Of a stretch of 42,999 bases of DNA, positions 1 to 37,183 are shown one piece after another (position 1 is the first letter of the stretch; each line of letters starts with the position of its first letter). This DNA comes from Kagunavirus LM08P2. The notes below the pieces were generated by a model that had not been told where the DNA came from, made no database searches, and worked only from the letters and a program-made list of their open reading frames with translations. The stretch is taken from the sequence record OZ035738.1, one strand, 5' to 3'. The translations under genes and the position numbers were made by a program.

Positions 1-29
1 GTAACAACGAACATGGGCGAGGTGGAGGA

Positions 30-1280
30 ATGAGCATTCAGCTATCCGCACCACAGGCGTTGTTCCTGAACTGCGATAACAAATACAAAGCCTACGTCGG
101 CGGCTTCGGCAGTGGCAAGACATTTGTTGGCTGTCTCGACCTGCTCACATTTATGCTCAAGCACCCCGGTACGCGCCTTGGCTACTTCGGCCCGACATAC
201 CCCGCTATTCGTGACATCTTCTACCCGACATTTGAGGAAGCGGCTAACCTGCTCGGCCTTGATGTGCTGGTTAAATCCGGCGACAAAGAAGTCGTGGTTA
301 CTCGCGGTAAGACGGCGATCGGGACAGTTATCTGCCGTTCGATGGATAACCCTGGTTCGATAGTCGGCTTCAAAATCGCCGCGGCGGTCGTGGATGAACT
401 GGACGTATTGAGCCGCGAGAAAGCTGAGCTGGCGTGGAACAAAATTGTCGCCCGTATGCGTCTGGTTATCCCGGGCGTAACCAACCACATCTCCGTCACC
501 ACGACGCCGGAAGGGTTCAAGTTCGTCTATGCCAAGTTCAAAGATAACCCGACGCCGAGTTACTCAATGGTGCAGGCATCAACTCACGAGAACGCGCGAT
601 TCCTGCCGCCTGACTACATTAGCTCGCTGACCGAGACTTACCCGGCGCAACTGATTAACGCGTACCTGAATGGTGAGTTCGTCAACCTGACCTCCGGCAG
701 CGTCTACTACGCCTACGACCGCCGTAAGCACCGCAGCAAAGAGACAATTCAACCTGGCGACACGCTGTACATCGGGCAGGACTTCAACGTTACGAAGAAC
801 GCCAGCGCCGTTTATGTGCAGCGTAAAGACGGCTGGCACGCGGTAGCAGAGCTGAAAGGTCTGTTCGATACGCCGGATACTGTGCGCGTAATTACTGAGA
901 AGTGGAAGTCACATGGGCACCGCATCGTCGTTTACCCTGACGCCAGCGGCAAGAACCGCAAGACCAACTCGGCATCAATCTCAGATATTGCGTTACTCCA
1001 GCAGGCTGGGTTCGATGTTCGCGCTAAATCCGCCAACCCCCCGGTTAAAGACCGTGTTTTAGCGGTGAATACCGCGCTGGAAAAAGGTAAGCTGTGGGTC
1101 AACGACCACTTATGCCCTGAGATAGCCAAGACGCTTGAGCAGCAGGCGTACGACGATAACGGCGAGCCCGCTAAAGACGGCATCATCGACCATATGGCGG
1201 ATGCTCTCGGCTATCCGGTAGTTTACGAGATGCCGGTGGTTAAACCAGTAATCAACATCCCGGTGACTTTTGCACTTTAA
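30..1280 (+). CDS. terL: Terminase large subunit
   Basis: 416-aa ORF with Walker A P-loop VGGFGSGKT near the N-terminus; ATG at 30 overlaps (ATGA) the stop of the small-terminase frame that continues from the window end; followed by portal gene. Confidence 0.8.
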   Translation: MSIQLSAPQALFLNCDNKYKAYVGGFGSGKTFVGCLDLLTFMLKHPGTRLGYFGPTYPAIRDIFYPTFEEAANLLGLDVLVKSGDKEVVVTRGKTAIGTVICRSMDNPGSIVGFKIAAAVVDELDVLSREKAELAWNKIVARMRLVIPGVTNHISVTTTPEGFKFVYAKFKDNPTPSYSMVQASTHENARFLPPDYISSLTETYPAQLINAYLNGEFVNLTSGSVYYAYDRRKHRSKETIQPGDTLYIGQDFNVTKNASAVYVQRKDGWHAVAELKGLFDTPDTVRVITEKWKSHGHRIVVYPDASGKNRKTNSASISDIALLQQAGFDVRAKSANPPVKDRVLAVNTALEKGKLWVNDHLCPEIAKTLEQQAYDDNGEPAKDGIIDHMADALGYPVVYEMPVVKPVINIPVTFAL

Positions 1281-1292
1281 GAGGATTATTCA

Positions 1293-2774
1293 ATGTTAAC
1301 TATGAACGGTCAGAATCAGGGTGTTAAGACAAAACACCGGGAATGGCTGCATCACTTCGATAAATGGCAGAAGGTGCGCCACGCACTGGAAGGCGACCTT
1401 ATCCGTTACCTGCGCAACGTCGGGAAGAACGAGCCGGACCCTAAATATGCAGCACAGCGCCAGGAAGAATACGAGAACGGTGCTATCTGCTACAACTTCA
1501 CAAAACGTACCCTGGCGGGGATGGTGGGGTCGGTGATGCGCAAAGACCCGGAACAGATTATTCCGCCCGAGCTTGAGTACCTGTTACACAATGCCGACGG
1601 TTCAGGTGTCGGGCTGTGGCAGCACGCACAGGATACGCTGATGGAGATTGACTCAGTAGGCCGTGGTGGGTTGCTGGTGGACGCGCCGGAGACAGCCGCA
1701 GCAACGGCAGCCGAACAGAACGCAGGATTATTAAACCCGGTCATCGCATTCTACACCGCAGAGAACATCATAAACTGGCGACTGACTCGCGTCGGTTCTG
1801 TTAACCGCGTGACGATGGTCGTGTTGCGTGAGGTGTGGGAATACTCAGAACCGGGCGCTGAGTTCGAAACAAAGTTCGGTGAGCAATACCGCGTTCTCGA
1901 TTTGATTGACGGGCGCTATCGCCAGCGCATTTACCGCTTCGATGCAGAAGGTGGTGCACAGGGTGAAGTAAAAGTAATATTCCCGGAACTCGGCGGACAG
2001 TTGCGCGGAAAAATCCCGTTCACGTTCATTGGCGCAAGCAACAACGACGCCACCATCGACGACGCGCCTTTGCTGCCGTTAGCTGAGCTTAATATCGGGC
2101 ACTTCCGCAACAGCGCGGACAATGAGGAGTCCAGCTTCGTTGTAGGCCAGCCTACTTTGTTCATCGCCCCTGGTGAGAACATGAGTATGGAGCAGTGGAA
2201 AGAAGCAAACCCTCACGGCGTGCGCATGGGGTCGCGTTCTGGCCATAACATTGGTTACGGCGGCAATGCGTTTCTGGTTCAGGCGGGAGAGAACAACCTC
2301 GCCAAGCAGAACATGCTGGATAAAGAGAATCAGGCAATCCAGATTGGCGCACAGCTTATCACCCCGACGCAGCAAATCACCGCTGAATCGGCACGCCTGC
2401 AACGCGGCGCCGACACGTCAGTTATGGCGACAATCGCACGGAACGTAAGCATGGCGTACACCGATGCGTTGCGCTGGGTGGCCGCGATGCTCGGATTGCG
2501 TGAAGGCACAGAGATTGAGTTCAAACTGAATATGGAGTTCTTCCTGCAACCGATGACCGCTCAGGACCGTGCTCAGTGGATGGCAGATATTAACGCGGGC
2601 CTGTTACCGGCTACTGCTTATTACGCAGCATTGCGTAAGGCCGGTGTAACTGACTGGACTGACGAAGACATTCAGAACGCTATCGAAGACGCGCCGCTGC
2701 CGTTAGGTGCTGTTACTCAGGTAGCGGGAGAGATTCCGCAGTCGTCGCAGCAACAGGACACCACCCAGCAGTAA
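1293..2774 (+). CDS. Portal protein (by position and size)
   Basis: 493-aa ORF directly downstream of terL with GAGGA Shine-Dalgarno; no motif I can verify by eye. Confidence 0.6.
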   Translation: MLTMNGQNQGVKTKHREWLHHFDKWQKVRHALEGDLIRYLRNVGKNEPDPKYAAQRQEEYENGAICYNFTKRTLAGMVGSVMRKDPEQIIPPELEYLLHNADGSGVGLWQHAQDTLMEIDSVGRGGLLVDAPETAAATAAEQNAGLLNPVIAFYTAENIINWRLTRVGSVNRVTMVVLREVWEYSEPGAEFETKFGEQYRVLDLIDGRYRQRIYRFDAEGGAQGEVKVIFPELGGQLRGKIPFTFIGASNNDATIDDAPLLPLAELNIGHFRNSADNEESSFVVGQPTLFIAPGENMSMEQWKEANPHGVRMGSRSGHNIGYGGNAFLVQAGENNLAKQNMLDKENQAIQIGAQLITPTQQITAESARLQRGADTSVMATIARNVSMAYTDALRWVAAMLGLREGTEIEFKLNMEFFLQPMTAQDRAQWMADINAGLLPATAYYAALRKAGVTDWTDEDIQNAIEDAPLPLGAVTQVAGEIPQSSQQQDTTQQ

Positions 2775-2810
2775 GTTAACATATAGCCCCGAAAGGGGCT
2801 TTCCTATAGT

Positions 2811-3887
2811 ATGCTATTAACTTTAGCGTCACAGGGTTTATCTATGAGCTTACTTACATCCCTAATCAGCCACCAGATATGGCTGCAACGCGCCGCATCC
2901 GGTGAAGTGAAAGACCTCGCGCCGTTCATTCAGGAAATGCGGGACGAAATCAAACGGCAGGTGCTGTTATTCGGTGACGACGGTCGCAGCACCGAGCGGC
3001 TGAATAAACTGTTACGCGACCTCGAAGAAGCACTGGCAGGGCTTACAGGCGACTGGCAAACAAAGCTGACAGAAGACCTTAAGGAACTGGCGGCGTATGA
3101 GGCTGAGTGGAACGTAAAAACGCTGACGGCTAACGTTAACGCGGAATTTGTTACACCTACCGCTGAGCAGGTGTGGGCCGCTGCTGAGTTTCAACCATTA
3201 TCGTTAAGCGACAAGCCCGTCGATTTCACTAAGCTGATGGATGGCTGGGGTGAAACGGAAGTCGCGCGCCTGGTAACCGGCGTTAAGATGGGCTTTGTCC
3301 AAGGCCAGACGACACGGCAGATTGTTAAGAATGTTGTTGGCGCTGGTGGGCTGGCGGACATCTCCGAGCGTAACGCAGCTACGGTAATCCGCACCGCGCT
3401 GTCGCACGTGTCCAACGAAGCACGTAACGAGACGTACCGTCAGAACGACGACATCATCGAGAAGTACGAGTGGGTGTCAACGCTGGACAGCCGTACCAGT
3501 ACGATTTGCAGAGCCAGGGACGGAATGACGTGGGAAATTGGTAAAGGGCCAATGCCGCCAGCCCATCCGAATTGTCGGTCGTGCACGGCTCCGGTAATCA
3601 GTTCAGAGTTCGACTTCCTCGATAAAGGCGCAAAACGGGCGGCTAAGGGTGCAGATGGCGGTACTCAGGTAAACGCAGACACCACTTATTACGAGTTTCT
3701 GAAACAACAACCGGCGTGGTTTCAGGACCAGGCGCTCGGCCCGGTGCGAGGTAAGATTTTCCGTAACAGCGGTATATCGCCGGAAGAGTTTCGCGTAATA
3801 TCTGTAGATGGTTTCGGGAATCCGCTCACGCTTAAGCAGATGGCGGAACTCGATAAACGTGTTGCTGATTATCTGAAAGGGGATTAA
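2811..3887 (+). CDS. Head morphogenesis protein, Mu F / SPP1 gp7-like
   Basis: 358 aa; C-terminal region LDSRTSTICRARDG...HPNCRSC resembles the conserved Mu-F family core; position after portal. No clear SD; start could be ATG at 2844. Confidence 0.55.
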   Translation: MLLTLASQGLSMSLLTSLISHQIWLQRAASGEVKDLAPFIQEMRDEIKRQVLLFGDDGRSTERLNKLLRDLEEALAGLTGDWQTKLTEDLKELAAYEAEWNVKTLTANVNAEFVTPTAEQVWAAAEFQPLSLSDKPVDFTKLMDGWGETEVARLVTGVKMGFVQGQTTRQIVKNVVGAGGLADISERNAATVIRTALSHVSNEARNETYRQNDDIIEKYEWVSTLDSRTSTICRARDGMTWEIGKGPMPPAHPNCRSCTAPVISSEFDFLDKGAKRAAKGADGGTQVNADTTYYEFLKQQPAWFQDQALGPVRGKIFRNSGISPEEFRVISVDGFGNPLTLKQMAELDKRVADYLKGD

Positions 3888-4348
3888 TGATGGGCTTTTT
3901 CAAAGTAACTGATGTACCTTCACGTCGTGTAGTCCAGTACGCCCGAGTGTCTGGCTCTGGCGAGAACGTGGTATTTATTGAAGACGAAAGTGTACTGGGT
4001 GCGCCAGTGGACGATATGCCGTTTGCAGATAAAACCGGTATTGCGTTACCCGCTGCCGGCATGCTTTACGAGATTCCGTATCTGGCGGACGCTGGTGACG
4101 TGTACTTCTCTGTGCAACCGCAGGACGTTGAACTGGCAGACGGCAGCGCGACTCTCACTGTCGAAGTTAAGGCGGGCAAAGCACCACACGCGCTGACCTG
4201 GTACAAAGACGGTAAGGAAGTGGTAAACGCCCCGGAAGAGGCTTTGTCTCTTACGGTTAACGCGGCAGGCGAATACTTCGTTAAAGTTACTGATGCCGAT
4301 GGAGTAGAGGCCGTGAGTAAAGCGGCGAAGGTTACTAAGCCTGAATGA
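3887..4348 (+). CDS. Ig-like domain protein (possible head decoration)
   Basis: 153 aa; C-terminal LTWYKDGKEV...GEYFVKVTDADG pattern typical of bacterial Ig-like domains; TAATG overlap with upstream gene. Confidence 0.45.
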   Translation: MMGFFKVTDVPSRRVVQYARVSGSGENVVFIEDESVLGAPVDDMPFADKTGIALPAAGMLYEIPYLADAGDVYFSVQPQDVELADGSATLTVEVKAGKAPHALTWYKDGKEVVNAPEEALSLTVNAAGEYFVKVTDADGVEAVSKAAKVTKPE

Positions 4349-4350
4349 TA

Positions 4351-4378
4351 AAAGGCCCCATTACGGGGCCTTAGTTTT
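4351..4378. terminator. Bidirectional intrinsic terminator between convergent genes
   Basis: AAGGCCCC-ATTAC-GGGGCCTT hairpin flanked by A-run upstream and T-run downstream, between + gene ending 4348 and - gene ending 4377. Confidence 0.6.
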
Positions 4379-4622
4379 ATCGCACTCTCATAAATAGCTT
4401 ACCTTTGCGCTGTAACAAATCCATGCCAACTGCACCTTCACCAGATTTGTTCGGACGGCGCATTAAACTAAAGTTCCATACTCTAGCTTTTGAAGCATCT
4501 TTCGCATTGCACACCCAAAGTCTGCCGCTTTCTCTTAGGTCAAATAAGTCCGATATACTGAAATTATTAACCGGTATGAACCCGCTAATGAACTCACGTT
4601 CGCAACTAGGTAATTCCTGCAT
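4377..4622 (-). CDS. Hypothetical protein, opposite-strand insert in head module
   Basis: 81-aa ORF on minus strand with strong SD (GAGGAGGG) upstream of ATG at 4622 and its own promoter at 4649-4677. Confidence 0.5.
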   Translation of the reverse strand: MQELPSCEREFISGFIPVNNFSISDLFDLRESGRLWVCNAKDASKARVWNFSLMRRPNKSGEGAVGMDLLQRKGKLFMRVR

Positions 4623-4648
4623 ACACCCTCCTCGTTTCGATGTAATGA

Positions 4649-4677
4649 ATAGTACCCTATTATATTGGTGTGTGCAA
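4649..4677 (-). promoter_or_regulatory. Sigma70-like promoter, family 2 (TTGCAC-N17-TACTAT)
   Basis: Read on minus strand: TTGCACACACCAATATAATAGGGTACTAT; near-identical copies at 13790-13818(-), 36393-36421(+), 37829-37857(+). Confidence 0.5.
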
Positions 4678-4743: not shown

Positions 4744-4772
4744 TTGACTTTTCACTAAAAATGTGCTAAGCT
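4744..4772 (+). promoter_or_regulatory. Promoter TTGACT-N17-TAAGCT (TG-extended), copy 1
   Basis: TTGACTTTTCACTAAAAATGTGCTAAGCT; nearly identical sequence at 36084-36112. Confidence 0.5.
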
Positions 4773-4779
4773 CCACCTG

Positions 4780-4978
4780 AGCTTGTGAAGTATGAACAAG
4801 CGACCGCGGCGCGGGCAGGTAACGGAGCGGGACGTAAGTCCTGAGTGTAGTTACGCTGACGCGTTCGGAAGGGCCATACTCTATTGCTTGTGTAAAAAGT
4901 AACTGGTTTACTGAGATTACGCCGTTTCTATGTTTAAATGATAAGGACTAGCGCCCCGCTTTATGGCGGGGCTTTACT
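4780..4978 (+). ncRNA. Candidate structured noncoding RNA / leader element, copy 1
   Basis: About 110 nt downstream of the promoter is conserved with the copy at 36119-36230; contains hairpins with compensatory differences between copies; no ORF conserved between copies; ends at a GC-rich hairpin plus T-run at 4951-4978. Confidence 0.45.
4951..4978 (+). terminator. Intrinsic terminator
   Basis: GCGCCCCGC-TTTATG-GCGGGGC followed by TTTACTT, immediately upstream of the spanin RBS. Confidence 0.55.
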
Positions 4979-10568: not shown

Positions 10569-11735
10569 ATGGCTACAACTCCTTTTAAGGGCGCGAATAC
10601 CGCGCAATTCTATGTGGCGGAAGTCACCCCGGGCGTAACACCGACTAACCCGGTATGGTCGCCGTTGCGTAACACAGGTGGCGTTCCCGCTATCACCCGC
10701 GACACGCTGACATCCAACGAACTGGACGGCAGCCGTGAAACTACATCCATCCGCACCGGTAACAAACAGGTTAGCGGTGAATACGCGATCGAGCTTAGCT
10801 CTAAAAGCCAGGACGACTGGCTGGCGGGCGCTTTAGGTTCCACGTGGCAATCAGGTGTCTCTCTGTCAGGGCTGTCGATTACCGTCGCGCCTGCAGGTAA
10901 GACATTTACACGCTCCACCGGTAGCTTTATTTCTGACGGCGTTGAAGTAGGCGACCTGATTGCGTTTACCGACTTAACCGGCGACAACGCAAAACCATTT
11001 ATCGTCACTGCGGTAGAGGCACTGGTAGTGACCGGTGCAGGCATCCAGCACACTCTCACCACAGAGACCGCTACTACTGCTGCTAAGACAGGCGACAAAC
11101 TGGAAACCGGTAGCCAGTGTAAGACGTTCTCTATTCTCACCTGGTACAAAGGCCAGTGCGGCGGGACTGACGCATACACGTTAACCAAAGGCGTGGAAGT
11201 TTCTGGTTTTACCGTTGAGCAGGCCGTTAACGCGATGGTAACGGGCAGCTTCCCGTTCATCGGGCGCAGCCAGGAGATTCTCACTACGCCACCGTCTGGT
11301 TCTGACTTCTCCTCTGTTACGTTTGGTGACGAGCCGTTCTCCTCGGTCGACGTTTCCGTGTTCGATGGCTCTACGCCGTTGCGTTGCGACAGCCTGACCA
11401 TCACCAACGATAACAGCGCGTCCGCACAGTTCGAACTCGGCAACTCTAACGTTGCGTTTGTGGAGCGTAGCCGCGCGGCTAACACCTTCTCCATCTCAGG
11501 CAAGCTGTATGACATGGCTATGATTCAGAAGTTTATCAACGAGCAGCAGGTAGAGATTAACTCTATTCTGGCGGGGGTAAACGGAGCTATGTCTTTCAGC
11601 CTGAAACGCGCAGAGCTCACGGCGGTTACACCAGAAATATCCGGCCCGGAATCAATTACCCAAAGTATAGAAGGGCAGTCCACAGGCAACCAATACCAGT
11701 CGTCTATCGTAATTCAACGTATTAGTTACGCATAA
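10569..11735 (+). CDS. Major tail protein (putative)
   Basis: ORF track start 10563 is GTG; ATG at 10569 with SD AAGAGG; about 390 aa; followed by strong terminator; precedes chaperones and tape measure. Confidence 0.5.
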   Translation: MATTPFKGANTAQFYVAEVTPGVTPTNPVWSPLRNTGGVPAITRDTLTSNELDGSRETTSIRTGNKQVSGEYAIELSSKSQDDWLAGALGSTWQSGVSLSGLSITVAPAGKTFTRSTGSFISDGVEVGDLIAFTDLTGDNAKPFIVTAVEALVVTGAGIQHTLTTETATTAAKTGDKLETGSQCKTFSILTWYKGQCGGTDAYTLTKGVEVSGFTVEQAVNAMVTGSFPFIGRSQEILTTPPSGSDFSSVTFGDEPFSSVDVSVFDGSTPLRCDSLTITNDNSASAQFELGNSNVAFVERSRAANTFSISGKLYDMAMIQKFINEQQVEINSILAGVNGAMSFSLKRAELTAVTPEISGPESITQSIEGQSTGNQYQSSIVIQRISYA

Positions 11736-11737
11736 AA

Positions 11738-11768
11738 CTAAGGCCCCTTTCGGGGCCTTTTTCTTACT
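11738..11768. terminator. Bidirectional intrinsic terminator
   Basis: AAGGCCCC-TTTC-GGGGCCTTTTTCTT with A-rich 5' flank; sits between + major tail gene and - cassette. Confidence 0.7.
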
Positions 11769-11994
11769 CATCAATATTGCTTCGGTATTCCCGTAACTTC
11801 TCCAGACTTTCAATTGCTTCCGCTAAGTCGGTTCCGGTGTCCTTGTGTCCGCGCAAGCCCATGCACAATAGCTTCTTCAATGCGTGCTGTAGCGCCGGGT
11901 CGCGTATATCGAAGGCGCGGAGCACATCATAAACGTCTACTGTCATAGTGCTGCCGTGAGTGTTTGTCATTGTGCGGTTGTATTTTGAAGTCAT
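11764..11994 (-). CDS. Hypothetical protein (76 aa)
   Basis: Last gene of minus-strand cassette; ATGA overlap with upstream gene. Confidence 0.45.
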   Translation of the reverse strand: MTSKYNRTMTNTHGSTMTVDVYDVLRAFDIRDPALQHALKKLLCMGLRGHKDTGTDLAEAIESLEKLREYRSNIDE

Positions 11995-12242
11995 AAATGG
12001 CTCTCATCTATAAGAACGATAACTGCCGAAATCGAAACGGCACCTACATATAAAAGACGCATCTCGGTCGGCGCTATAGCGGTAACAGCTTCGTACAGGC
12101 CCGAGAACACGGACAAATCCATAGAGATAAATGTTAAGACCGCCGCCATTCCTAGTACCGCGGTGGATAAAACCAGTAAAACCAGTAAAACCAGTAAAAC
12201 CACAACAGGCATTATGGCGAAAATCCACAAGGCTTTAATCAT
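11991..12242 (-). CDS. Small membrane protein with VLL repeat
   Basis: 83 aa, two hydrophobic segments; N-terminal (VLL)n tract encoded by a 9-bp tandem repeat; ATGA overlap with upstream gene. Confidence 0.5.
   Translation of the reverse strand: MIKALWIFAIMPVVVLLVLLVLLVLSTAVLGMAAVLTFISMDLSVFSGLYEAVTAIAPTEMRLLYVGAVSISAVIVLIDESHL
12173..12199. repeat. 9-bp tandem repeat CCAGTAAAA x3 perfect (plus partial flanking copies)
   Basis: Read directly; in frame within the 11991-12242 gene, encoding repeated Val-Leu-Leu. Confidence 0.85.
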
Positions 12243-13369
12243 CCCAGCATCTCCGGTGAAATAGTTAAACGTGCGACCTCGCCATATTCGGCGCTATAAG
12301 TAATTACATTTGCGCTACGACCCGACATCCAGCCGCCTCTGGAGGCGTAGGCGTCTTTAGCCGCTAAGGTTCGATGTTGCTCGACAACCATGTTACGGCT
12401 TTCTACAATCTTTTGATGGTGCAGGTGGCCTACGTGGGCGTAGCTGTAAACACTCTCGCCGAACGCTTTGCGGAACTTAGCTATCATAATTGGTTCGATA
12501 GCGTCGAAGCGTGCTTTATGTCCGTGGTGAAAGAACAGCGTCGTTTTGCCGTGTTGGACCATCTTGTAAACATCCGGCGACGTATCGACGAACACACGCG
12601 GCTCATTGTCGTACAGCGTACTGAACATCTCAGCTAACCAAATCATTCCGCTCTCGTCGTGGTTCCCTTGCACAATAAGCAAGCGAACATTTTTATGTTT
12701 AACCAGCGCCATATCGATAACACGGCGGACCATACGAATCATGTAGCGGACCAGTTTCTGATAGCGCGTGTCAGCGTCAAGAACATGACCACTCGCCGGT
12801 GTAACCGCATCCAGACTATCAAAGTGTGCGAAGTCCCCCAGCAGGTTAATAACTCCTGTTCCTGCATCTGGTGCTTTCTGAAACGCAGCATCGAACCACC
12901 GAGAGAACAGGTCTTCCGCAATCTTCATGTCCCAGTCGTCGCCGCTCTCGTCGGCCCAGGCAAGCATACCGAGATGGAAATCAGATACCGTGTAAAGATT
13001 GAGTAGCTTGTCGTCGCGTTTGGCTCGAGTCGCTTTAGCCGGCGCAACTGGCGTAATCTCTGACTTCATGCCTTCAATCACGGCTTTCATCAACTCGACC
13101 TGACGTTCAGCGTCGGTGTCTGTCTTAACCCATTGCAACTTAGTATTGCCGAACTCGTCTACCAGAGACGACGTCCCTTTAATCTTGTAGCCGTCTGGGA
13201 CAAGGTGGCTAACGTCGCGCCCGTGGCCCACGCCTTTCTTAGCCAGCTTCGCTTTACGGATACGAATAACGCGGTCTGAGATGCCGTATTTACGGGCTAT
13301 ATCGATATTCTTCATTCCGGCGTTCAATTCTTCCTGTAACTGTTCGTCGGTTATTTTCTTCCGGGCCAT
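12239..13369 (-). CDS. HTH-fused calcineurin-like metallophosphoesterase (SbcD/Mre11- or CpdA-like fold)
   Basis: Motifs in order DFHLG, GDFAHFD, GNHD, HHGH, GHLHH match the metallophosphoesterase signature; N-terminal ITDEQLQEELNAGMKNIDIARKYGISDRVI looks like a helix-turn-helix; likely start ATG 13369 with SD GAGGAAG (track start 13420 lacks an SD). Confidence 0.6.
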   Translation of the reverse strand: MARKKITDEQLQEELNAGMKNIDIARKYGISDRVIRIRKAKLAKKGVGHGRDVSHLVPDGYKIKGTSSLVDEFGNTKLQWVKTDTDAERQVELMKAVIEGMKSEITPVAPAKATRAKRDDKLLNLYTVSDFHLGMLAWADESGDDWDMKIAEDLFSRWFDAAFQKAPDAGTGVINLLGDFAHFDSLDAVTPASGHVLDADTRYQKLVRYMIRMVRRVIDMALVKHKNVRLLIVQGNHDESGMIWLAEMFSTLYDNEPRVFVDTSPDVYKMVQHGKTTLFFHHGHKARFDAIEPIMIAKFRKAFGESVYSYAHVGHLHHQKIVESRNMVVEQHRTLAAKDAYASRGGWMSGRSANVITYSAEYGEVARLTISPEMLG

Positions 13370-13434: not shown

Positions 13435-13761
13435 CTATTTACTTTCCACGCCTATCGCCCACCCAGTCATTACCATTTGCAGACGGGTAGCTGTTAGTAG
13501 GCTGTAGAACGCGTCCCCGTTTTTCTCTACTGAACGTATCACCGTGTATGTTACGGCTTGCGGGGGTAGACCCGATTTACCAACCTCTACGGCGGCCTCA
13601 CACTCACGAACTGTAGAGTCCTTGAATGCCTTTACAATAGTAGGGTCAGCTTTCTTAAGCACGCCAGAAGTCATAAGAACAGATTCGCTAAATACCTGTT
13701 CGCACGGAGATCCAAAAGTAGCAAAAGACATAAACCCCAGAGCTAATACTAATTTACGCAT
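13435..13761 (-). CDS. Secreted/periplasmic small protein
   Basis: 108 aa; N-terminal signal-peptide-like MRKLVLALGFMSFATFGS; SD GAGGA; first gene downstream of promoter 13790-13818. Confidence 0.5.
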   Translation of the reverse strand: MRKLVLALGFMSFATFGSPCEQVFSESVLMTSGVLKKADPTIVKAFKDSTVRECEAAVEVGKSGLPPQAVTYTVIRSVEKNGDAFYSLLTATRLQMVMTGWAIGVESK

Positions 13762-13789
13762 AATTATTTCCTCAGTAAGTTACAAGTGA

Positions 13790-13818
13790 ATAGTACCCTA
13801 TTATATTGGGGTGTGCAA
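13790..13818 (-). promoter_or_regulatory. Sigma70-like promoter, family 2
   Basis: On minus strand TTGCACACCCCAATATAATAGGGTACTAT; drives the 13761-to-11764 cassette. Confidence 0.5.
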
Positions 13819-13925
13819 GTAGTGTGCTAGAATAAGTTTGCGCCTAGTGTCGCACACGAAAAGCGGGTGGTTCCCGTCTGGCGCGTCAACCTTAACCTGT
13901 AACCTCTTAACCAAAGGATTAAAGA

Positions 13926-21837: not shown

Positions 21838-23802
21838 ATGTCAAGCGGATGCGGTGACGTTTTAAGCCTGGCGGATTTACAAACCGCCAAGAAACACCAG
21901 ATTTTTGAGGCTGAAGTAATTACCGGCAAATCCGGCGGAGTTGCTGGCGGCACTAATATCGACTACGCAACTAACCCGGTTACGCTGCAAACGCAGAAGA
22001 CAATGCCTGCTATTCTGCGCGACATCGGCTTTCAGCCAGCATCATTCGACTTCACTTCTGGGGGGACACTCACCACAGACGACCGAAACAAGGCTGTGTT
22101 GTGGCCTTTGGCCGATGGTGGTGATGGGGATTGGTATTACTGGGAGGGCGCGCTGCCGAAGGTTATCCCAGCGGCATCAACTCCGGCGTCTACTGGTGGT
22201 GTTGCCGAAGGTGCCTGGAGGCCTGTGGGGGATATTACGTTACGCAGAGAACTAGCTAGTACTAACGGAGCCCAGGCTATTGGTACCTTATCGGGCGGTA
22301 GCGTACAAGATGAATTAACTAAGCTACCCTTAACGTATATCGCCCAGCAAAAATCACCTATTACCATCACAGTAGGGCCTTCTGGTGATTTTTCAACTAT
22401 CAATGACGCGATAACTAGCGTGGCGAAGTATCAGTATGTCCTCGCTTCGGGTAATACTGGTATCCGTATCACCCTGTTAAGCGGTTTTTTGATGGAAGAA
22501 CAGGTCATTGTCGACTTTTTAAATCTTTCGTTTATAGAAATATACTCAACGTCGGTTGTGCATATATCTCGCGCGGCGCTTACAACCGCGGTTGAGGGGT
22601 ACTACCCTGCCTTTTGCGCAAAAAATTCAGCGGTCCTACCAAAGATAAACGCCTCTTTTGATATGGGTTGGACCTCCGGGGCTCAAGACCAATCTGTGGC
22701 ATTTCTGGCCTACGGAGCTGGGTCCGCAATATCTATTGCAAGCGGTAAAGGATGTATTAGGAGTTACGGGTTCGGCATTCTAGCGTCTAATGGCGCTATG
22801 TTCAGCGCCGACGGTACTGTGTGGGACGATTGCGCCGGTGATGGGGTTTCTGTGTACGCAGGAGGCTCAGGCTCCGCTAAAAACGCAACGGCAAACCGTT
22901 GCTACAATGGGTTCGTTGCGAATGGTGGCGTACTTGATGCCACAAGCTCTGTTGCGAAAGGAACCAGAAGTGCTGGCTTTGCGGCCAGAAAATCTGGGGT
23001 GCTGAACGCTGAATTTGCGGATGCGCAAAACGGGGTAACGTACGGCTTCTATTCCGCGATAAGTTCGATGCTAAACGCTACCCGTGGTAACTGTAGCGGT
23101 TGCCGGTTTGGCATATCTGCGCAGAGAAGCTCAAAAGTCGCAGCGGAAGAGGTTACAGCTGATAATTGCCTGGAAACGAATATATCAGCCCGCAGGTACT
23201 CAGAGATTGAGGCACAAAGCTGTCATGCCGTAAACACCACTACGACTCCGCTCTACTGTATTCGCGCCAACTATTCAGGGTCGGTTATTGTTGAGTCCGG
23301 AACTATAGGCGGGGCTTGCACACATAATATTTGCCGGGCGACCACCAACGCAGAGATACAAGCTACCGATACTAAGATGTCAGGGGCGATAGGTACATCG
23401 ATTGCGGTCTTCGTTGACGAGTCGTCAAACTTTAACGGACGCAGGATGAACCTGAACCATTCAACCTCGGAGGGAACCGCAGTTCATGTTCTCCGGGGGA
23501 GCACTGCGGACATTAGCGATAGTACTATAGTTGCGGGTAATAACTATGGGGTGGTGTCCCAGTATTGCGCTAACGTAGCTGCGGATAACGCGAAAGTGAA
23601 CGGCTCTTCGGATTATAGTGTATACGCTACCGACGGCGGGAAAATATCAGTAACTAACAGTAATGTCAGGCGCGACAACTCGACAGACCAAAATACGGAC
23701 ATTGTAATATCTCGTGGTGGTATTATTTCGGCATTTGGTGCATTAGGCGGCGTAAACACAACAGTTAACGCTGTATCTGAAAAAGGCATAATCTTCAAAT
23801 AA
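21838..23802 (+). CDS. Tailspike / receptor-binding protein
   Basis: 654 aa, last structural gene with strong SD; Gly/Ser/Asn/Thr-rich repetitive body suggestive of beta-helix fold; followed by strong terminator. Confidence 0.55.
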   Translation: MSSGCGDVLSLADLQTAKKHQIFEAEVITGKSGGVAGGTNIDYATNPVTLQTQKTMPAILRDIGFQPASFDFTSGGTLTTDDRNKAVLWPLADGGDGDWYYWEGALPKVIPAASTPASTGGVAEGAWRPVGDITLRRELASTNGAQAIGTLSGGSVQDELTKLPLTYIAQQKSPITITVGPSGDFSTINDAITSVAKYQYVLASGNTGIRITLLSGFLMEEQVIVDFLNLSFIEIYSTSVVHISRAALTTAVEGYYPAFCAKNSAVLPKINASFDMGWTSGAQDQSVAFLAYGAGSAISIASGKGCIRSYGFGILASNGAMFSADGTVWDDCAGDGVSVYAGGSGSAKNATANRCYNGFVANGGVLDATSSVAKGTRSAGFAARKSGVLNAEFADAQNGVTYGFYSAISSMLNATRGNCSGCRFGISAQRSSKVAAEEVTADNCLETNISARRYSEIEAQSCHAVNTTTTPLYCIRANYSGSVIVESGTIGGACTHNICRATTNAEIQATDTKMSGAIGTSIAVFVDESSNFNGRRMNLNHSTSEGTAVHVLRGSTADISDSTIVAGNNYGVVSQYCANVAADNAKVNGSSDYSVYATDGGKISVTNSNVRRDNSTDQNTDIVISRGGIISAFGALGGVNTTVNAVSEKGIIFK

Positions 23803-23805
23803 AAC

Positions 23806-23832
23806 TAAGGCCCCATTTGGGGCCTTTTCTCT
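23806..23832. terminator. Bidirectional intrinsic terminator
   Basis: AAGGCCCC-ATTT-GGGGCCTTTTCTCT with A-run upstream; between convergent modules. Confidence 0.7.
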
Positions 23833-23968
23833 ACTCTTCTGATAACTTCTCAAGTACAAACGCCAGTTGTGCGTTAGCGGCATCTCTTTGCTGCCGTAGG
23901 CGTAGAACCTCCTCCTCAAGTTCCTTGATACGTTTTTGCAATGCCGGAATCGGGGCTATGATGTTCAT
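23831..23968 (-). CDS. Small coiled-coil protein (45 aa)
   Basis: Hand-translated MNIIAPIPALQKRIKELEEEVLRLRQQRDAANAQLAFVLEKLSEE; strong SD AAGGAG; ATGA overlap with helicase stop. Confidence 0.4.
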   Translation of the reverse strand: MNIIAPIPALQKRIKELEEEVLRLRQQRDAANAQLAFVLEKLSEE

Positions 23969-25389: not shown

Positions 25390-26065
25390 GATTGGCCTCA
25401 TGAACTGCTTTTGCGAAACCACGCGGGGTAAGGCTGCGTATTGTTTTTGTCCTCACCGATTTACCGCCTAATTTATTGTGTTGGTCGGAGTACCCATCAA
25501 CCACGGCGACACATGATTTAACGGGCATCACAAAACCGTTACCCGCCCAAATACATGTCTTCTTAGGGTACGCGTCCCGCGGTTTTATGTATTCGGGGAA
25601 CATTGGGTGCGTGTCGTCTTCGGGTAAATAGCCGCCGTATTCGTACGGATTGAACGAATAGTCAGGCTTGCGCCATAAAGACGAAAGAACGCTAACCGGG
25701 TTCTCAATCATATAAGGTACGTTGTACTTTTTAGCCAGACGCGCAGCCACTTTGCATGTAATCACGGCCTCTACCTGAAAAGTTGGATTCTTCTTCCGCT
25801 TCGTTTCGAAATGCGCTGCGCCGCTAACAGCTAAATCTGTGCACGGAGGGAACGCAAAAATAATATCCGGCGCAACCTCGAAGTCGAATTTATTGTCAAT
25901 CCACGCGTTTATATAGTGGATGTTCTCGTGTTCAACTTTTGCGCCCAATCGCGCGTAGTCGCCGTGGTCGGCACCGTCGTAGTTGAAACAATAGCAAGTA
26001 TGGCCCGCTTCCGCCCACGGTTGGGCCATGAGGCCCGAACCGTCGAACAATGACCAGATAATCAT
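25382..26065 (-). CDS. DNA (cytosine-5)-methyltransferase, compact
   Basis: 227 aa with C5-MTase motifs in canonical order: FDGSG (motif I), PPC (motif IV catalytic Cys), ENP (motif VI). Confidence 0.6.
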   Translation of the reverse strand: MIIWSLFDGSGLMAQPWAEAGHTCYCFNYDGADHGDYARLGAKVEHENIHYINAWIDNKFDFEVAPDIIFAFPPCTDLAVSGAAHFETKRKKNPTFQVEAVITCKVAARLAKKYNVPYMIENPVSVLSSLWRKPDYSFNPYEYGGYLPEDDTHPMFPEYIKPRDAYPKKTCIWAGNGFVMPVKSCVAVVDGYSDQHNKLGGKSVRTKTIRSLTPRGFAKAVHEANHV

Positions 26066-26253
26066 TTCGCCACCAGAACTAACTCTTTACGCCCGAACGC
26101 CGTAACGTTACCGGTTACGTCTTCGATAACCAGTTTACCGTTCGACTCTACGTACACCGTATCAACGGCAACAGGGCGACGGGTCTTAACATTGAAAATC
26201 ATGTCGCCCGGTACGATGTCACGTGCTGGTTTGCGGTCGTATTCGTGTTTCAT
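26062..26253 (-). CDS. Hypothetical protein (63 aa)
   Basis: ORF with ATGA coupling to MTase gene. Confidence 0.4.
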   Translation of the reverse strand: MKHEYDRKPARDIVPGDMIFNVKTRRPVAVDTVYVESNGKLVIEDVTGNVTAFGRKELVLVAK

Positions 26254-26292
26254 TTCTCAATTCCTTATAGTTAAGGCCCCGAAGGGCCTGTA

Positions 26293-26547
26293 TTAGTTAG
26301 ATAATTCGGCTTGAACTTGCTTAATAAGTTCTCCAGCCGTTGTGAAGTCTACGGACAGCCGTTTAGCTACGTCTTCCGCAAGCACTTTGCGGCCAACCGA
26401 CCCGAAACCCAGGATACGGTTTACTTCCGAAACCTTCATATACCATGAGTAATTAACTGATGCCCCTGTGTACTTACAGATTCGAACAGATGAATCGATT
26501 GAACCCATAATCATGGTGTTTACTGACAGTTGAAGTTCGATAGCCAT
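26293..26547 (-). CDS. Hypothetical protein (84 aa)
   Basis: ORF with SD AAGGA downstream of promoter 26582-26610. Confidence 0.4.
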   Translation of the reverse strand: MAIELQLSVNTMIMGSIDSSVRICKYTGASVNYSWYMKVSEVNRILGFGSVGRKVLAEDVAKRLSVDFTTAGELIKQVQAELSN

Positions 26548-26548
26548 T

Positions 26549-26863
26549 TTATAATTCCTTATATTGTTGGGGTATGTGCTTACTATAATAGTCTGCTATT
26601 AGGGTGTCAATCTGTTTTATCGAACCAACGACAAAAACATTCGCGCCACGTTTACGCATCCGCTCGTGCTCGCGTAACTGGTGTGGGTCTGGCTTCGTGC
26701 TTTCATCTTTCTTAACCTCAACGAACCAGATGATGCCGCCGGGGAGGATTACCAACAGGTCGGGCGCTCCGTTTCGGCCCTCATACACTATCTTACGAAC
26801 GAGGCCCCCCAGGGCCTCGAATCGGTCTTTCGCGTATTTCTGTACGCGGCCCTCTTTAGTCAT
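26549..26863 (-). CDS. VRR-NUC domain nuclease
   Basis: PD-(D/E)XK-like core GAPDLLVILPGGIIWFVEVKK; start uncertain (ATG 26863 or TTG 26878). Confidence 0.55.
   Translation of the reverse strand: MTKEGRVQKYAKDRFEALGGLVRKIVYEGRNGAPDLLVILPGGIIWFVEVKKDESTKPDPHQLREHERMRKRGANVFVVGSIKQIDTLIADYYSKHIPQQYKEL
26582..26610 (-). promoter_or_regulatory. Sigma70-like promoter, family 1 (TTGACA-N17-TATAGT)
   Basis: On minus strand TTGACACCCTAATAGCAGACTATTATAGT; lies inside the 3' end of the VRR-NUC gene. Confidence 0.5.
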
Positions 26864-27094
26864 GGGCGTAGAACCCAAGTAAGGAAAGCCCCTCCTAGAA
26901 CGGCAACACCGACAAACTTAAAGAACAGGCCATAACAGAACATCGTGGCTATTCCCGCCCCGAGTAACAGTGCAAGCATGGTTACTATTGTCCAAAATAC
27001 AAACATTGTCATAATACGCACCCCTCACGTTTCGTGTGCTCAATCCCGCAGCGCGGACAGATTCGACAGTCTTCTTCATAGAACCAGTAGATTT

Positions 27095-27226
27095 TCATTC
27101 CAGCACCCACAGATAAATTGCGATGAACATACCTAATACGGCTACAATCATGCCGTATTGGCCCTCGTGACAGTAGACACCGGCGGCAAATCCCGCCAGT
27201 ACTGCGATAATCAGTTTACTTAGCAT
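27095..27226 (-). CDS. Small membrane protein (43 aa)
   Basis: Hand-translated MLSKLIIAVLAGFAAGVYCHEGQYGMIVAVLGMFIAIYLWVLE; SD GAGGTG; overlaps DNA polymerase stop. Confidence 0.35.
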   Translation of the reverse strand: MLSKLIIAVLAGFAAGVYCHEGQYGMIVAVLGMFIAIYLWVLE

Positions 27227-29489
27227 AACGGTACACCTCTTCCCCAGCCCATGTTAACGGGAACCCTTCGGCCCACTCAGGTAATGAGCATAGCAGGTCA
27301 CCCATCTCTTTAACCGTGTACTCTGGCGTGTCTGGCGTTTCGGCAACACATTCGTCATGTACGTGGAGTACAATTGGGTAGCCCGCCGCCTCGACCGTCA
27401 GGAGTCCGTTAACCAGTAAATCACGGCACAACGCCTGGATGATGTTTTCACACAATTTTCCGCCGTGGGTGTACAAAGTTGTCCACTGGCGGGTGGTCTG
27501 ATTTTCACCCTGATACTTAATGCGGACGTTAGTAGTAACGCGCCCATCCTCGTCAGTCTCTTTAGTGACGCTTAAGCCTATGCCAGGGTAGGACATGATG
27601 CGCCCAGACGGCAGTTCCACGCACAACCACCAACCCGGAACCGGATTACCGTGGTTGTCTTTTTCTTTGGTACGCCAGATGCGGATGGCTCTGTCGCCGT
27701 TAAGGCGTACTCGGGCCCCCGCCCAAAACTCTCGTCCCGGATTTCTGATGGCGGCTATCACCGAATCCTTAAGGTCATTCCAGAATTTCACTGTTTCCGG
27801 ATGGGCTTCCCGCCACATGCGCTTAATGGCGTCACAGGTGCGCCAGACTTCTTTAGGCAGCACATAAGAGGCCCGTTCATCTTTTTTACCAGGCTTTGGC
27901 GGGCGTTTAGCCTCCTGAATTCTGGCCCATTCGTAGCCACGGGCGGTAGCCGCCCAAATGTGGTCGGGGAACGTGCCCCGCATTGTCTCTGTCATTTTAA
28001 AGAGGTCCAGCCCGTAAGTTTTAGCCATAGTCATAAAAGCCCCTACGCCCCCCTCGTAGCCGAGGCCGAGTTCGCAACATTTCCCGACCTGACGTAGGTC
28101 CTTACGGGTGGCTTTTAGTTCTACGGGGTCCATGCCAAACATCTTGCCCGCGGTGGCGCAATAAATATCAATCCCTGCGCGGAAGGTCTCAAGCGCGGAT
28201 GTCTCCCCCGCGGTCCAGGCCAACCCGCGCCCTTCTACGTTTGAGTAGTCGGCAACGAGCAACTTATTACCCTTTTCAGGGATGATGCAACTGCGAACAG
28301 TCGAGGCTGTCAGCTTGGATACGTCGAAACGACGGTGCGCCCGACCCTTTAGCAGCAGATTGATGCCGAACGATAGGGGGTTGAGACGACGGTTCCAGTC
28401 TTCGTCGGACTCCCACGGCTGGCGTACAAGTTTCTTCTCCTCGTTAGTCGGGTCATCATGATAGTACCCGCGCGACAGGTTCTGCGGCTGGAACCCTTTA
28501 CCCGCAAATCGTAAAGTGCGCTTTGCCCCACCGTACTGGATGCAACCGCGCCGGCGGCCGTCTTTGGACCGTCCTAGCAGGAGCGGTTTGTATTTTGTCG
28601 ACGCCGTGGAGGCCGCGCCGAGGCGCATCTCAATGATTGTGCGCGCATCGTCAGGTAAGTCGTCGTCCTCTAGCAAACCTTCGAGCGTTGCTTTCTGTGC
28701 ATTATAGATATTGTAGGCCGGTGCCAGCTCCCGAAGGATTGGCAGGAAGTCTTTACCCGTTAGCTTGCCGCCAAATTTAGCCCTGGCCTCGTTTTTTAGC
28801 TCTTGCTTGTGGCGTTCAACTGCTGCTACCGCCGCCTCAGCAAGAGCCGCATCAACAAAGAAGCCTCGGTCGTTGATTAACTGGTCAAGTTCAAGTACAC
28901 GGTCCTCGAAATCGGAGTTACCCCAACGTGGCAGCTTATGGAAGACTTCACGCATCGCTGTGATGTCGCTCACGGCATACTTGATGAACAGGGCCCACTC
29001 GTCAGGGTGAGTTTCTGCGGTGTAGCGGCGGATTTTGTAGTTCTTCGGCGTCGGTTTAGAGAAACGCTTAATCAGCGCCTTGCCGCGTTTATCTTTTGCA
29101 TTGTCGGCGGATACGCCCAGCACTTCGCACAATGCGTCAAGTGACCCCGGCAGCGCGTGACGAAACGCCCAAATCATCGTATCAATGGTGTTGCTTACGG
29201 GAATATCAAAACCCCAGCAGTTCTTCATGATGAGCCTATCGAAAAGTCCACCGTTATGCCACACCATCTTAATGCGACTGTTTGGCTTCACCAGACGGCG
29301 TAACGCGCGGTGTAAATCTCCCGGCATGTCGCTGCCGTCAGTGCAGTCCCATACCTGAACAGGCTCGTCATCAAAAGCATAGGTGCAGATGAGCACTTCG
29401 GTAGTCGGGTGTTCGGCGTAAGCATAGGAGCCGACTTTCTTTAAATCGGCTTCAGAGAATGTTTCAAAGTCTAAGAACAGGTAACTCAT
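27216..29489 (-). CDS. Family A DNA polymerase with 3'-5' exonuclease domain
   Basis: 757 aa; N-terminal DFETFS (Exo I motif); C-terminal HVHDECV resembling Pol A motif C. Confidence 0.85.
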   Translation of the reverse strand: MSYLFLDFETFSEADLKKVGSYAYAEHPTTEVLICTYAFDDEPVQVWDCTDGSDMPGDLHRALRRLVKPNSRIKMVWHNGGLFDRLIMKNCWGFDIPVSNTIDTMIWAFRHALPGSLDALCEVLGVSADNAKDKRGKALIKRFSKPTPKNYKIRRYTAETHPDEWALFIKYAVSDITAMREVFHKLPRWGNSDFEDRVLELDQLINDRGFFVDAALAEAAVAAVERHKQELKNEARAKFGGKLTGKDFLPILRELAPAYNIYNAQKATLEGLLEDDDLPDDARTIIEMRLGAASTASTKYKPLLLGRSKDGRRRGCIQYGGAKRTLRFAGKGFQPQNLSRGYYHDDPTNEEKKLVRQPWESDEDWNRRLNPLSFGINLLLKGRAHRRFDVSKLTASTVRSCIIPEKGNKLLVADYSNVEGRGLAWTAGETSALETFRAGIDIYCATAGKMFGMDPVELKATRKDLRQVGKCCELGLGYEGGVGAFMTMAKTYGLDLFKMTETMRGTFPDHIWAATARGYEWARIQEAKRPPKPGKKDERASYVLPKEVWRTCDAIKRMWREAHPETVKFWNDLKDSVIAAIRNPGREFWAGARVRLNGDRAIRIWRTKEKDNHGNPVPGWWLCVELPSGRIMSYPGIGLSVTKETDEDGRVTTNVRIKYQGENQTTRQWTTLYTHGGKLCENIIQALCRDLLVNGLLTVEAAGYPIVLHVHDECVAETPDTPEYTVKEMGDLLCSLPEWAEGFPLTWAGEEVYRYAK

Positions 29490-29504
29490 TATTTTCGACC
29501 CTTA

Positions 29505-29532
29505 GTAAAAAGGCCCAATGAAGGGCCTTAGT
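29505..29532 (-). terminator. Intrinsic terminator (minus strand)
   Basis: On minus strand AAGGCCC-TTCATT-GGGCCTTTTTACT, downstream of SSB-like gene. Confidence 0.55.
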
Positions 29533-29548
29533 TAAATTGATTCAGATA

Positions 29549-30178
29549 TTAGCGGCGGCGACGTTCGCGGCGCGGTGCTTCATCTTCTTCGTCGTCTTCC
29601 AGGTCGTCGGTGCTCGCTACTACACTGGAGCCGCCGAAGCGTTTACCTTCACCCATATACTTGATGCCGAGGATAGTGGCGCACAGGTTTTTCCAATCTT
29701 TGTGCCACCATAACTCTACAGATACGTTTGCGACACATCCGCTGTATACCTGCTCGCCTTCTATTTCCTTTCCGTCGATGTTGAAATCAGGCTCGGTTTG
29801 TTTTTCACCTTTAGCTGATGTCATAATTACCGGTTGGCGGTTGTTAGTAGCACGGAAATACAAACCTTCTTCAAAATCCTCAATCGGATTGTCACGCATT
29901 GCCAGGTCGCGTACGCAGCATTTATCCGCATGGTGGTCTACGCCGTAGTTGGCCTTCATCCATTTTTCAGCAGCAGCTGACCCGATTGCCTCTGTTACAA
30001 CTTCCAGCGCTGTATCGTAAAGCGCATCAATTTGAGGATGGTCAGGCTGCATAAGAACCGTAACCTGATATTTGCCCTTAATCAGTTTACCGGTTTTCTT
30101 GTCCTCAGAATCAGCAGCACGTTCAAATACGTTAACCCAGGCGGTGTTTACTTTACGCAGATTCAGTTTAATACCCAT
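29549..30178 (-). CDS. Single-stranded DNA-binding protein (phage SSB-like, acidic C-tail)
   Basis: 209 aa ending in acidic tail DDLEDDEEDE then basic RRERRRR; position between exonuclease and polymerase. Confidence 0.5.
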   Translation of the reverse strand: MGIKLNLRKVNTAWVNVFERAADSEDKKTGKLIKGKYQVTVLMQPDHPQIDALYDTALEVVTEAIGSAAAEKWMKANYGVDHHADKCCVRDLAMRDNPIEDFEEGLYFRATNNRQPVIMTSAKGEKQTEPDFNIDGKEIEGEQVYSGCVANVSVELWWHKDWKNLCATILGIKYMGEGKRFGGSSVVASTDDLEDDEEDEAPRRERRRR

Positions 30179-30245
30179 CTTGATTTCTCGCTTTTCAGTT
30201 TATATTTCAAAGTTTACTCCGGGAGCTGCCCGGCCAGTGATTAGA

Positions 30246-30274
30246 ACTATAATAGCTAACTATTCAGGTGTCAA
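30246..30274 (-). promoter_or_regulatory. Sigma70-like promoter, family 1
   Basis: On minus strand TTGACACCTGAATAGTTAGCTATTATAGT upstream of SSB-like gene. Confidence 0.5.
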
Positions 30275-30522
30275 ACCTTCCAGCCAGTTATTTTCTCAAC
30301 TATCTCGATATATTTGCTAGGCCATTTCATGCTGTTTATGAATCGAATCGCCCGTGTCTTCCACGATTTATCACTCAGGATGGCTTCGATGTCGCGTGTT
30401 CGCATTAGGCATATCGTAAGGCACGCTAAGATAAATGTCGGCATCATTAGCGGCAACATAAGAACCCAGAAAATAGTACACGCTACAAATCCGCCAAGCA
30501 CCCTGAACATTTTACGAATCAT
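30271..30522 (-). CDS. Small membrane protein (83 aa)
   Basis: ATG at 30522 with SD GAGGAGG; two hydrophobic helices; track start 30552 is an upstream extension. Confidence 0.45.
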   Translation of the reverse strand: MIRKMFRVLGGFVACTIFWVLMLPLMMPTFILACLTICLMRTRDIEAILSDKSWKTRAIRFINSMKWPSKYIEIVEKITGWKV

Positions 30523-31823: not shown

Positions 31824-32092
31824 GCTCTGTTCTCCCACTGGTCAATTAAATGCCGTGTCTTATGGTCGCAGTGCATGGCCCATCCATACATCGACTCAAA
31901 GACATAAAAGTCTGGCTTGGCGAAAGTTGTGCGCTTAATCTGCGACACGTGGCGGCCTATATCTTTAGGCCGTGGCACTTTGCCTAAGTACGCCATCTCT
32001 TCCATCAGGTGCGCACCGGACGGCGCACGTAACAGCCATAACACCTCTGTGTTGTCCCGCCTGTCTACGGCTCGGTAGAGTTGGTAAATCAT
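31820..32092 (-). CDS. Hypothetical protein
   Basis: Likely start ATG 32092 with SD GAGGG and ATGA coupling (track start 32119 is GTG). Confidence 0.4.
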   Translation of the reverse strand: MIYQLYRAVDRRDNTEVLWLLRAPSGAHLMEEMAYLGKVPRPKDIGRHVSQIKRTTFAKPDFYVFESMYGWAMHCDHKTRHLIDQWENRA

Positions 32093-32292
32093 TTCTTTAC
32101 CCTCACAGAATCCATCCACGCGAAAACGTCATCCATAGAAAAATCACCGTCGAAAACTTTTTGTGTTTTATCCGACTTTTGTACATACGTAGGGCGTTTA
32201 TTATCTACCGCGTGGAAGCATACGAAGTTATCCGTTTCTTCTATAACCCGCCCTGAAATCATAAGACCACTTTTCTTAGCTAAAATAGCCAT
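32089..32292 (-). CDS. Hypothetical protein (67 aa)
   Basis: ORF with SD GAGGG. Confidence 0.4.
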   Translation of the reverse strand: MAILAKKSGLMISGRVIEETDNFVCFHAVDNKRPTYVQKSDKTQKVFDGDFSMDDVFAWMDSVRVKK

Positions 32293-32347
32293 ATTTCCGA
32301 CCCTCAGTTTGGTGCCCTCACGTATGAGGGCACCATAAGTTAAGTAG

Positions 32348-32836: not shown

Positions 32837-32867
32837 TTGTTTCTCTCCTCTCGTTTGGTATGGGCTA

Positions 32868-32897
32868 ACTATAATAGCGAACTATTCATGTTGTCAA
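32868..32897 (-). promoter_or_regulatory. Sigma70-like promoter, family 1
   Basis: On minus strand TTGACAACATGAATAGTTCGCTATTATAGT (18-bp spacer). Confidence 0.5.
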
Positions 32898-32961
32898 TGG
32901 GCTTTCCTAAAATAATTAATATGGTACTATTCACATATAAACTGACTAAGGAGTAATTGAC

Positions 32962-33177: not shown

Positions 33178-33194
33178 CGCCCCTTTCTTTTTCC

Positions 33195-35462: not shown

Positions 35463-35520
35463 GTTGTATTTCCTTCAGCAAGTAATTTGGCCTCGGCGTT
35501 CACCGCGTCGGGGCTTTCTT

Positions 35521-35976: not shown

Positions 35977-36005
35977 ATTTCGCGCTCTCCTGTGTAAGAT
36001 GTATC

Positions 36006-36056: not shown

Positions 36057-36083
36057 ACTAAGATACAAAAGATGCTACTGGTA

Positions 36084-36112: not shown

Positions 36113-36118
36113 TCACTG

Positions 36119-37180: not shown

Positions 37181-37183
37181 GTT

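Follow-up and report, generated by a model that had tools for sequence, protein, structure and literature searches.

In the genome of Kagunavirus LM08P2, a 9-bp unit is repeated in tandem inside a small open reading frame. An initial annotation, made from the sequence alone, noted that copy-number change would lengthen or shorten a membrane helix and proposed a possible phase-variable membrane protein. How did this tract arise, and can it act as a switch? The stretch analysed (hereafter the window; 42,999 nt) is essentially the whole genome of a Kagunavirus-like siphophage (Guernseyvirinae).

The 9-bp tandem repeat

Read directly, the + strand at 12168–12202 is TAAAA-CCAGTAAAA-CCAGTAAAA-CCAGTAAAA-CCA. 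This comprises three complete units (12173–12181, 12182–12190 and 12191–12199) and two partial flanking copies (TAAAA, 12168–12172; CCA, 12200–12202). Tandem Repeats Finder recovered the same interval (period 9, 3.9 copies, 100% matches, score 70) as the top-scoring array of the whole window, the runner-up scoring 46. The three perfect copies with partial flanks that were first described are therefore confirmed, as is their reading frame: on the minus strand the unit is GTT TTA CTG (Val-Leu-Leu), in frame in the 83-aa ORF 11991–12242(-).

The tract contains 26 consecutive self-matches at period 9, compared to 10 in the longest run elsewhere in the window and at most 12 in 100 shuffles (analytic expectation for a 26-match run, ~9e−11). 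Likewise, a 26-nt probe spanning three units had a match in 0/100 dinucleotide shuffles. Two different Leu codons (TTA, CTG) alternate in constant order in all units, and the Leu codons of the gene outside the repeat are of five different kinds. The same TTA, CTG order in each unit points to duplication at the DNA level and not to a merely Leu/Val-rich protein. The periodicity of 12168–12202 is thus the product of DNA duplication, not of hydrophobic composition.

A small accessory membrane-protein gene

Homologues of the small gene formed 48 clusters among 5.8 billion proteins, and their alignments were free of gaps. dN/dS was 0.24–0.33 for divergent pairs (close pairs were noisy), and both the position of the gene and its stop/start overlaps were kept in every locus inspected (L002, L004, L091–L110). 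Together, these lines of evidence show that 11991–12242(-) is a genuine gene (Table 1). The family is alignable over its full length, with conserved M1, P12, M-D, Y, E-x-R and L-Y-x-G, and sits between metallophosphoesterase and phrog_2452 genes, which it overlaps at stop/start codons; the window protein and its gene conform in both respects. Across 1.84 billion representatives, an exhaustive HMM search recovered only 6 clusters of this tiny family at 50% identity.

The 83-aa protein had no match in Pfam at E ≤ 0.1. Scans of Pfam and PHROG with the window protein, the 77-aa form carried by relatives, the most divergent Kagunavirus form and the homologue from SETP13 returned no meaningful family (best PHROG match phrog_1374, E = 0.024). 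No relatives of the small protein turned up in GTDB species genomes, and the window had no match among complete E. coli genomes; neither search thus points to a prophage or bacterial origin.

AF2 models of both length forms (mean pLDDT values of 83.6 and 86.3) gave a two-helix hairpin, in which a very long apolar helix 1 is joined to helix 2 by a short amphipathic connector. For the 83-aa protein, helix 1 was predicted at residues 4–41 and helix 2 at residues 63–78, with the repeat inside a continuous helix 1 (pLDDT >90). Hydropathy gave an uncharged stretch at residues 4–41 (38 aa) in the window protein, versus residues 4–35 (32 aa) in the 77-aa form. Both analyses agree with the earlier placement of the repeat in the first hydrophobic, transmembrane segment, and the product is predicted to be an inner-membrane protein. 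A Foldseek search of BFVD with the AF2 model found no structural neighbour (best E = 9.9).

The gene was encoded by 7/417 related phage records matching its flanks (~2%). In phages without it, such as Bas75, the neighbouring genes are joined at a single ATGA (L003, 1532–1535), corresponding to the positions of the two ATGA overlaps in the window. Given this low occurrence and the clean ATGA junction where the gene is absent, we regard it as dispensable and accessory. This presence/absence polymorphism, bounded by the two overlaps, also has the appearance of a cleanly excisable, translationally coupled cassette.

Table 1 Position of the repeat, the small gene and the surrounding operon features in the window
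Feature	Position	Strand	Details
Bidirectional intrinsic-terminator hairpin	11740–11759	both	AAGGCCCC-N4-GGGGCCTT
Last gene of operon, 76 aa	11764–11994	-	phrog_2452; DUF3310 or JK_43P in some records
Small accessory membrane-protein gene	11991–12242	-	83 aa here; no Pfam/PHROG family
ATGA overlap, small-gene stop / 76-aa gene start	11991–11994	-	downstream presence/absence boundary
Perfect tandem repeat, 3.9 x 9 bp	12168–12202	-	gene strand TGGTTTTAC x3 + TGGTTTTA
ATGA overlap, metallophosphoesterase stop / small-gene start	12239–12242	-	translational coupling; upstream presence/absence boundary
Metallophosphoesterase ('DNA repair exonuclease' in some records), 376 aa	12239–13369	-	phrog_704; length counted from gene-caller start in relatives, open frame reaches 13420
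First gene of operon, 108 aa, signal-peptide-like N-terminus	13435–13761	-	phrog_14165
Promoter-like element heading operon, 39 nt	13781–13819	-	core CTTGCACAC.CCAATATAATAGGGTACTATTCA

Copy number in relatives and the origin of the four-unit tract

The window matched Kagunavirus phages, which are virulent siphophages of E. coli. The best match was Kagunavirus LM08P1, collinear from 1 to 42999 at ~95.7% identity. Over 311 bp around the small gene the two genomes are identical save for a clean 18-bp gap in the tract, and the same 18-bp gap was found in the more divergent GZMU_E2010. Overall identity to LM08P1 is uneven, at ~97.4% over the structural and early blocks (4646–25406, 31817–40913) and 85–93% with gaps at 1–4400, 25400–31800 and 41000–42999. 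This mosaic pattern, in which the small gene is 100% identical apart from the repeat, indicates recombination between lineages.

A length of exactly 77 aa, with two units, was observed in 45/48 homologue clusters and ~119/123 contigs (the latter being a sum over cluster contig counts). The 77-aa protein that equals the window product minus six residues was present in 39 index blocks and at least 19 contigs, from many unrelated samples. Ten independent 77-aa loci were read at the nucleotide level. Nine were identical to the window gene save for the 18 bp, the remaining one had four synonymous changes, and all ten carried TGGTTTTAC-TGGTTTTA, i.e., 1.9 units (17 nt). The Jerseyvirus homologues (SETP13, ZCSE7 and SGP007; 39% identity) aligned without gaps at 77 aa, a length read from their overlapping GTG/ATG starts.

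By exact-sequence look-up, the 83-aa product occurred in one contig only, that of this genome. Equivalent look-ups of the 74-, 80-, 86- and 89-aa alleles (1, 3, 5 and 6 units) found none on record. In IMG/VR and JGI metagenome contigs, the 26-nt probe detected no small-gene allele of at least three units. The 83 loci it returned were all unrelated, mostly giant-virus/freshwater, and matched in the repeat alone; tblastn with the protein returned nothing. The change in helix length without a frameshift that had been envisaged has thus happened here, with four units against two in every relative. The comparison of copy number across isolates, suggested at the same time, found the window to be the sole four-unit outlier to an otherwise invariant two-unit state.

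The gap-free alignment of Jerseyvirus homologues at 77 aa and only 39% identity identifies two units as the ancestral state. Four units are therefore derived, private to this genome and, as zero substitutions have accumulated since the expansion, very recent. Both alleles yield full-length products (77 and 83 aa), differing by whole units (two units, 18 bp) with the frame kept. On this basis, the tract is very probably a recent, lineage-private expansion of a pre-existing two-unit repeat in an accessory gene, and not an on/off switch.

In most relatives, Ile at codon 15 (ATT) leaves an imperfect two-unit repeat, TGATTTTAC-TGGTTTTA. In the nearest sub-lineage (Val/Met, codon 14-15), GTT or ATG-GTT makes the two-unit repeat perfect over 17 nt, and perfect repeats of this kind are classic substrates of slipped-strand mispairing. 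From the ancestral TGGTTTTAC-TGGTTTTA, we infer that the nascent strand slipped back by one unit during replication. As a two-unit tract gains only one unit per slip, the additional 18 bp would most likely reflect two slips in succession, from 2 units to 3 and then to 4. A three-unit intermediate, sought by exact look-up, was not on record, which counts against this two-step path.

The insertion adds six residues (Leu-Val-Leu-Leu-Val-Leu) and extends the apolar helix from 32 to 38 residues, or ~9 Å, with the frame kept. It would also change the register by 240 degrees for everything N-terminal of the insertion, including the conserved Trp6 and Pro12. The resulting 83-aa protein would be made from a four-gene leftward operon driven by a putative early-type, repeated promoter element (described below).

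The effect of the six additional residues on phage fitness, judged from conservation, is probably neutral to mildly deleterious in a dispensable gene. Length is strict across two genera and yet the gene is often absent, for which a neutral-to-mildly-deleterious mutation, caught before its loss or fixation, is the simplest reading. The expansion may have arisen during isolation or propagation. The strict 77 aa across genera also suggests that length matters, in which case the longer allele might be adaptive or, alternatively, deleterious and transient.

Other lesions of the small gene were found in metagenomic relatives. These included an independent, slightly diverged 12-bp tandem duplication in helix 1 (P0051; GTGTTAATTATG|GTGTTAGTTATG, +4 aa), the loss of 24 bp between two 7-bp GATTTTA repeats (P0047; −8 aa, 550-bp contig) and a frameshift null allele that lacks 1 nt of the T run in GGTTTTA (P0039; 1.9-kb contig). 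Lesions were located at L110 1501–1740, L111 240–449 and L112 496–727. Two further products were a 96-aa fusion of a phosphoesterase fragment to the membrane protein and a 32-aa internal-deletion product (P0053, P0054). All metagenomic lesions of the small gene were singletons, in keeping with the easy decay of a dispensable gene. The rare singleton indels in helix 1 show that its T-rich, codon-repetitive segment is mildly indel-prone and that helix 1 tolerates some length change. They also hint at an above-average instability that a pure one-off view of the expansion would understate.

Alternatives to a recent one-off expansion

The proposal of a phase-variable gene is not supported. Gain or loss of 9-bp units keeps the reading frame and so cannot switch expression of the gene on and off, the two-unit state is near-invariant in relatives, and a single outlier points to a one-off mutation more readily than to a recurrent, reversible switch. 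Nothing suggested a promoter or spacing effect of the repeat. SSR contingency loci of Haemophilus, Neisseria and Campylobacter are phase-variable genes that change by slipped-strand mispairing. The tract resembles these in being an in-ORF tandem repeat whose unit number has changed, presumably by slippage, but differs in its 9-bp unit, its four units only and its invariant copy number in ~119/123 contigs. Its classification as an SSR contingency locus is therefore not supported: the tract does lie within an ORF, and neither on/off switching nor polymorphism among isolates was found.

A second possibility is a hypermutable, in-frame contingency locus that tunes the hydrophobic length of an envelope-acting protein, e.g. 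a superinfection-exclusion factor. The gain of two units with zero substitutions and no intermediate is compatible with rapid successive slippage, the same helix carries +12 bp, −24 bp and −1 nt indels in metagenomic relatives, and a bona fide T4 Imm-type gene in the operon of relatives makes an envelope or exclusion role plausible. However, ~119/123 contigs and 45/48 clusters are exactly 77 aa, and more than 20 contigs hold the perfect two-unit precursor unchanged. The variants are all singletons, three of them on short metagenome contigs, the 9-bp unit gives no on/off switching, four units make a short tract, and the small protein matches no Pfam/PHROG family. We consider this explanation unlikely. 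There is only a slim chance that the expanded tract is genuinely unstable and tunes function. The chance is similarly slim for the full form of the idea, with helix 1 as a recurrent target of in-frame length mutation and the four-unit tract as an unstable, reversible length tuner of an envelope-acting protein; this would be a phage contingency locus that works by changing the length of a transmembrane helix and not by turning a gene on and off. If an unstable tract did alter an exclusion or envelope phenotype through helix length, this would be an unusual form of phenotypic tuning in a phage. No result here requires such a reading.

Alternatively, the extra 18 bp could have been introduced in sequencing or assembly, with only two units in the actual genome, as the allele was found in one genome only and tandem repeats can be mis-assembled. 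Against this, at 35 nt the entire tract would fit within any modern read, which gives an assembler no cause for inflation. Platform errors do not typically insert perfect copies in an exact multiple of the unit, as seen here, and the 83-aa product is present under both NCBI and Logan, suggesting two assemblies, although probably of the same reads. An artefact is accordingly very improbable.

Least credible is a repeat acting as a DNA or RNA element (protein-binding sites, structured RNA), or a spurious ORF: in principle a protein could bind to four phased 9-bp units, and short ORFs in other frames overlap the tract (12131–12238(+), 12163–12264(+), 12004–12228(-)), but relatives have two units, usually imperfect, with no relative sharing the four-unit array, and the alternative frame is a product in one frameshifted contig only. 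The non-coding and DNA-motif readings were rejected on the coding-type substitutions (dN/dS ~0.3), the conserved length and the translational coupling at both ends.

The favoured expansion can also be set beside proteins with in-frame VNTRs, such as the staphylococcal SD-repeat proteins, the streptococcal alpha C protein and the yeast FLO/ALS adhesins. In these proteins, long arrays form part of extracellular spacer domains and vary among isolates. As in these proteins, in-frame units alter the length of a segment without destroying the protein; in contrast, the array here is tiny, lies in a transmembrane helix of a 77-aa protein and varied in one genome. A literature search on in-frame repeats in phages found no comparable case and no mention of the small gene, nor was the gene mentioned in the BASEL completion paper (PMC11990801) or the K1B4 transcriptomics study (PMC12645636). 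The expansion is a new instance of a well-known mutation type in a minor phage gene. As it stands its importance is limited; it provides a clean and datable case of slipped-strand expansion in the genome of a lytic phage, and the 18 bp by which the alleles differ can serve as a convenient strain marker. It also draws attention to an unannotated, dispensable family of 77-aa membrane proteins, confined to Guernseyvirinae, whose operon often carries a T4 Imm-type superinfection immunity gene.

Operon context and possible role

The small gene belongs to a leftward block of four genes, with the tail tube gene on one side and the tail assembly chaperone genes on the other. A hairpin (Table 1) separates the end of this operon from the end of the rightward tail tube gene. 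The ATG of the first operon gene lies 20 nt downstream of the promoter-like element, which occurs in four genome copies (13781–13819(-), 4646–4677(-), 36392–36439(+) and 37828–37875(+)). The shared element is ~33 bp, CTTGCACAC(A/C)CCAATATAATAGGGTACTATTCA, with a perfect TATAAT or, in an alternative reading, TTGCAC-N17-TACTAT. Downstream of every copy come a short leader, an RBS and a start codon, and the copies at 36.4 kb and 37.8 kb head small-ORF clusters of early-region type. These elements were overlooked by a simple sigma-70 scan and were detected through a repeat search. Their arrangement suggests that the element is a putative early promoter and that the four-gene block would be transcribed with the early genes. 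The four copies probably define one early-like transcript class, the operon of the small gene included.

The first slot of the operon varied among relatives (L002, L004, L098, L103, L105–L107, L110), holding the 108-aa signal-peptide protein, a 97-aa protein or a 63-aa T4 Imm-type protein (PF14373). The last was found in SETP13, GZMU_E2010 and several metagenomic relatives, with the SETP13 and GZMU proteins scoring 57 and 49 bits against PF14373 (cut-off 27.9). This slot looks like a hotspot within the tail module at which envelope-acting accessory genes can be exchanged.

Given this operon context, the early-type promoter element and a phage-only distribution, the small protein might have an envelope-directed accessory role, e.g. 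superinfection exclusion or protection of the infected cell, which we propose tentatively. It resembles T4 Imm in being a small phage-encoded protein, predicted here to reside in the inner membrane, and a PF14373 gene occurs in the same operon. However, the small gene co-occurs with Imm in relatives and does not replace it, and its membership of PF14373 was rejected since the 83-aa protein had no Pfam match at E ≤ 0.1. Like holins, in which helix properties can matter for function, it is a small phage protein of hydrophobic helices. It differs from these in its location, between nuclease-like and phrog_2452 genes, and in having no holin family match. A holin role was rejected, as the lysis cassette (two holin-family genes and an endolysin) is at 39207–40243, 27 kb away.

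Other repeated elements were apparent in the window. Related GC-rich terminator hairpins occur at module boundaries (4345–4385, 11732–11772, 23799–23839 and 29503–29538), forming a bidirectional family with the core AAGGCCCC-N4-GGGGCCTT and flanking A/T runs. An 81-aa ORF with no PHROG match (4377–4622(-)) appears as a stand-alone transcription unit between the 4677–4646 promoter-like element and the 4345–4385 hairpin. Finally, a direct duplicate of ~145 bp (4744–4886 and 36084–36227; ~80–89% identity, core 4842–4886 and 36183–36227) was detected, and this segment cross-matches LM08P1 and GZMU_E2010.
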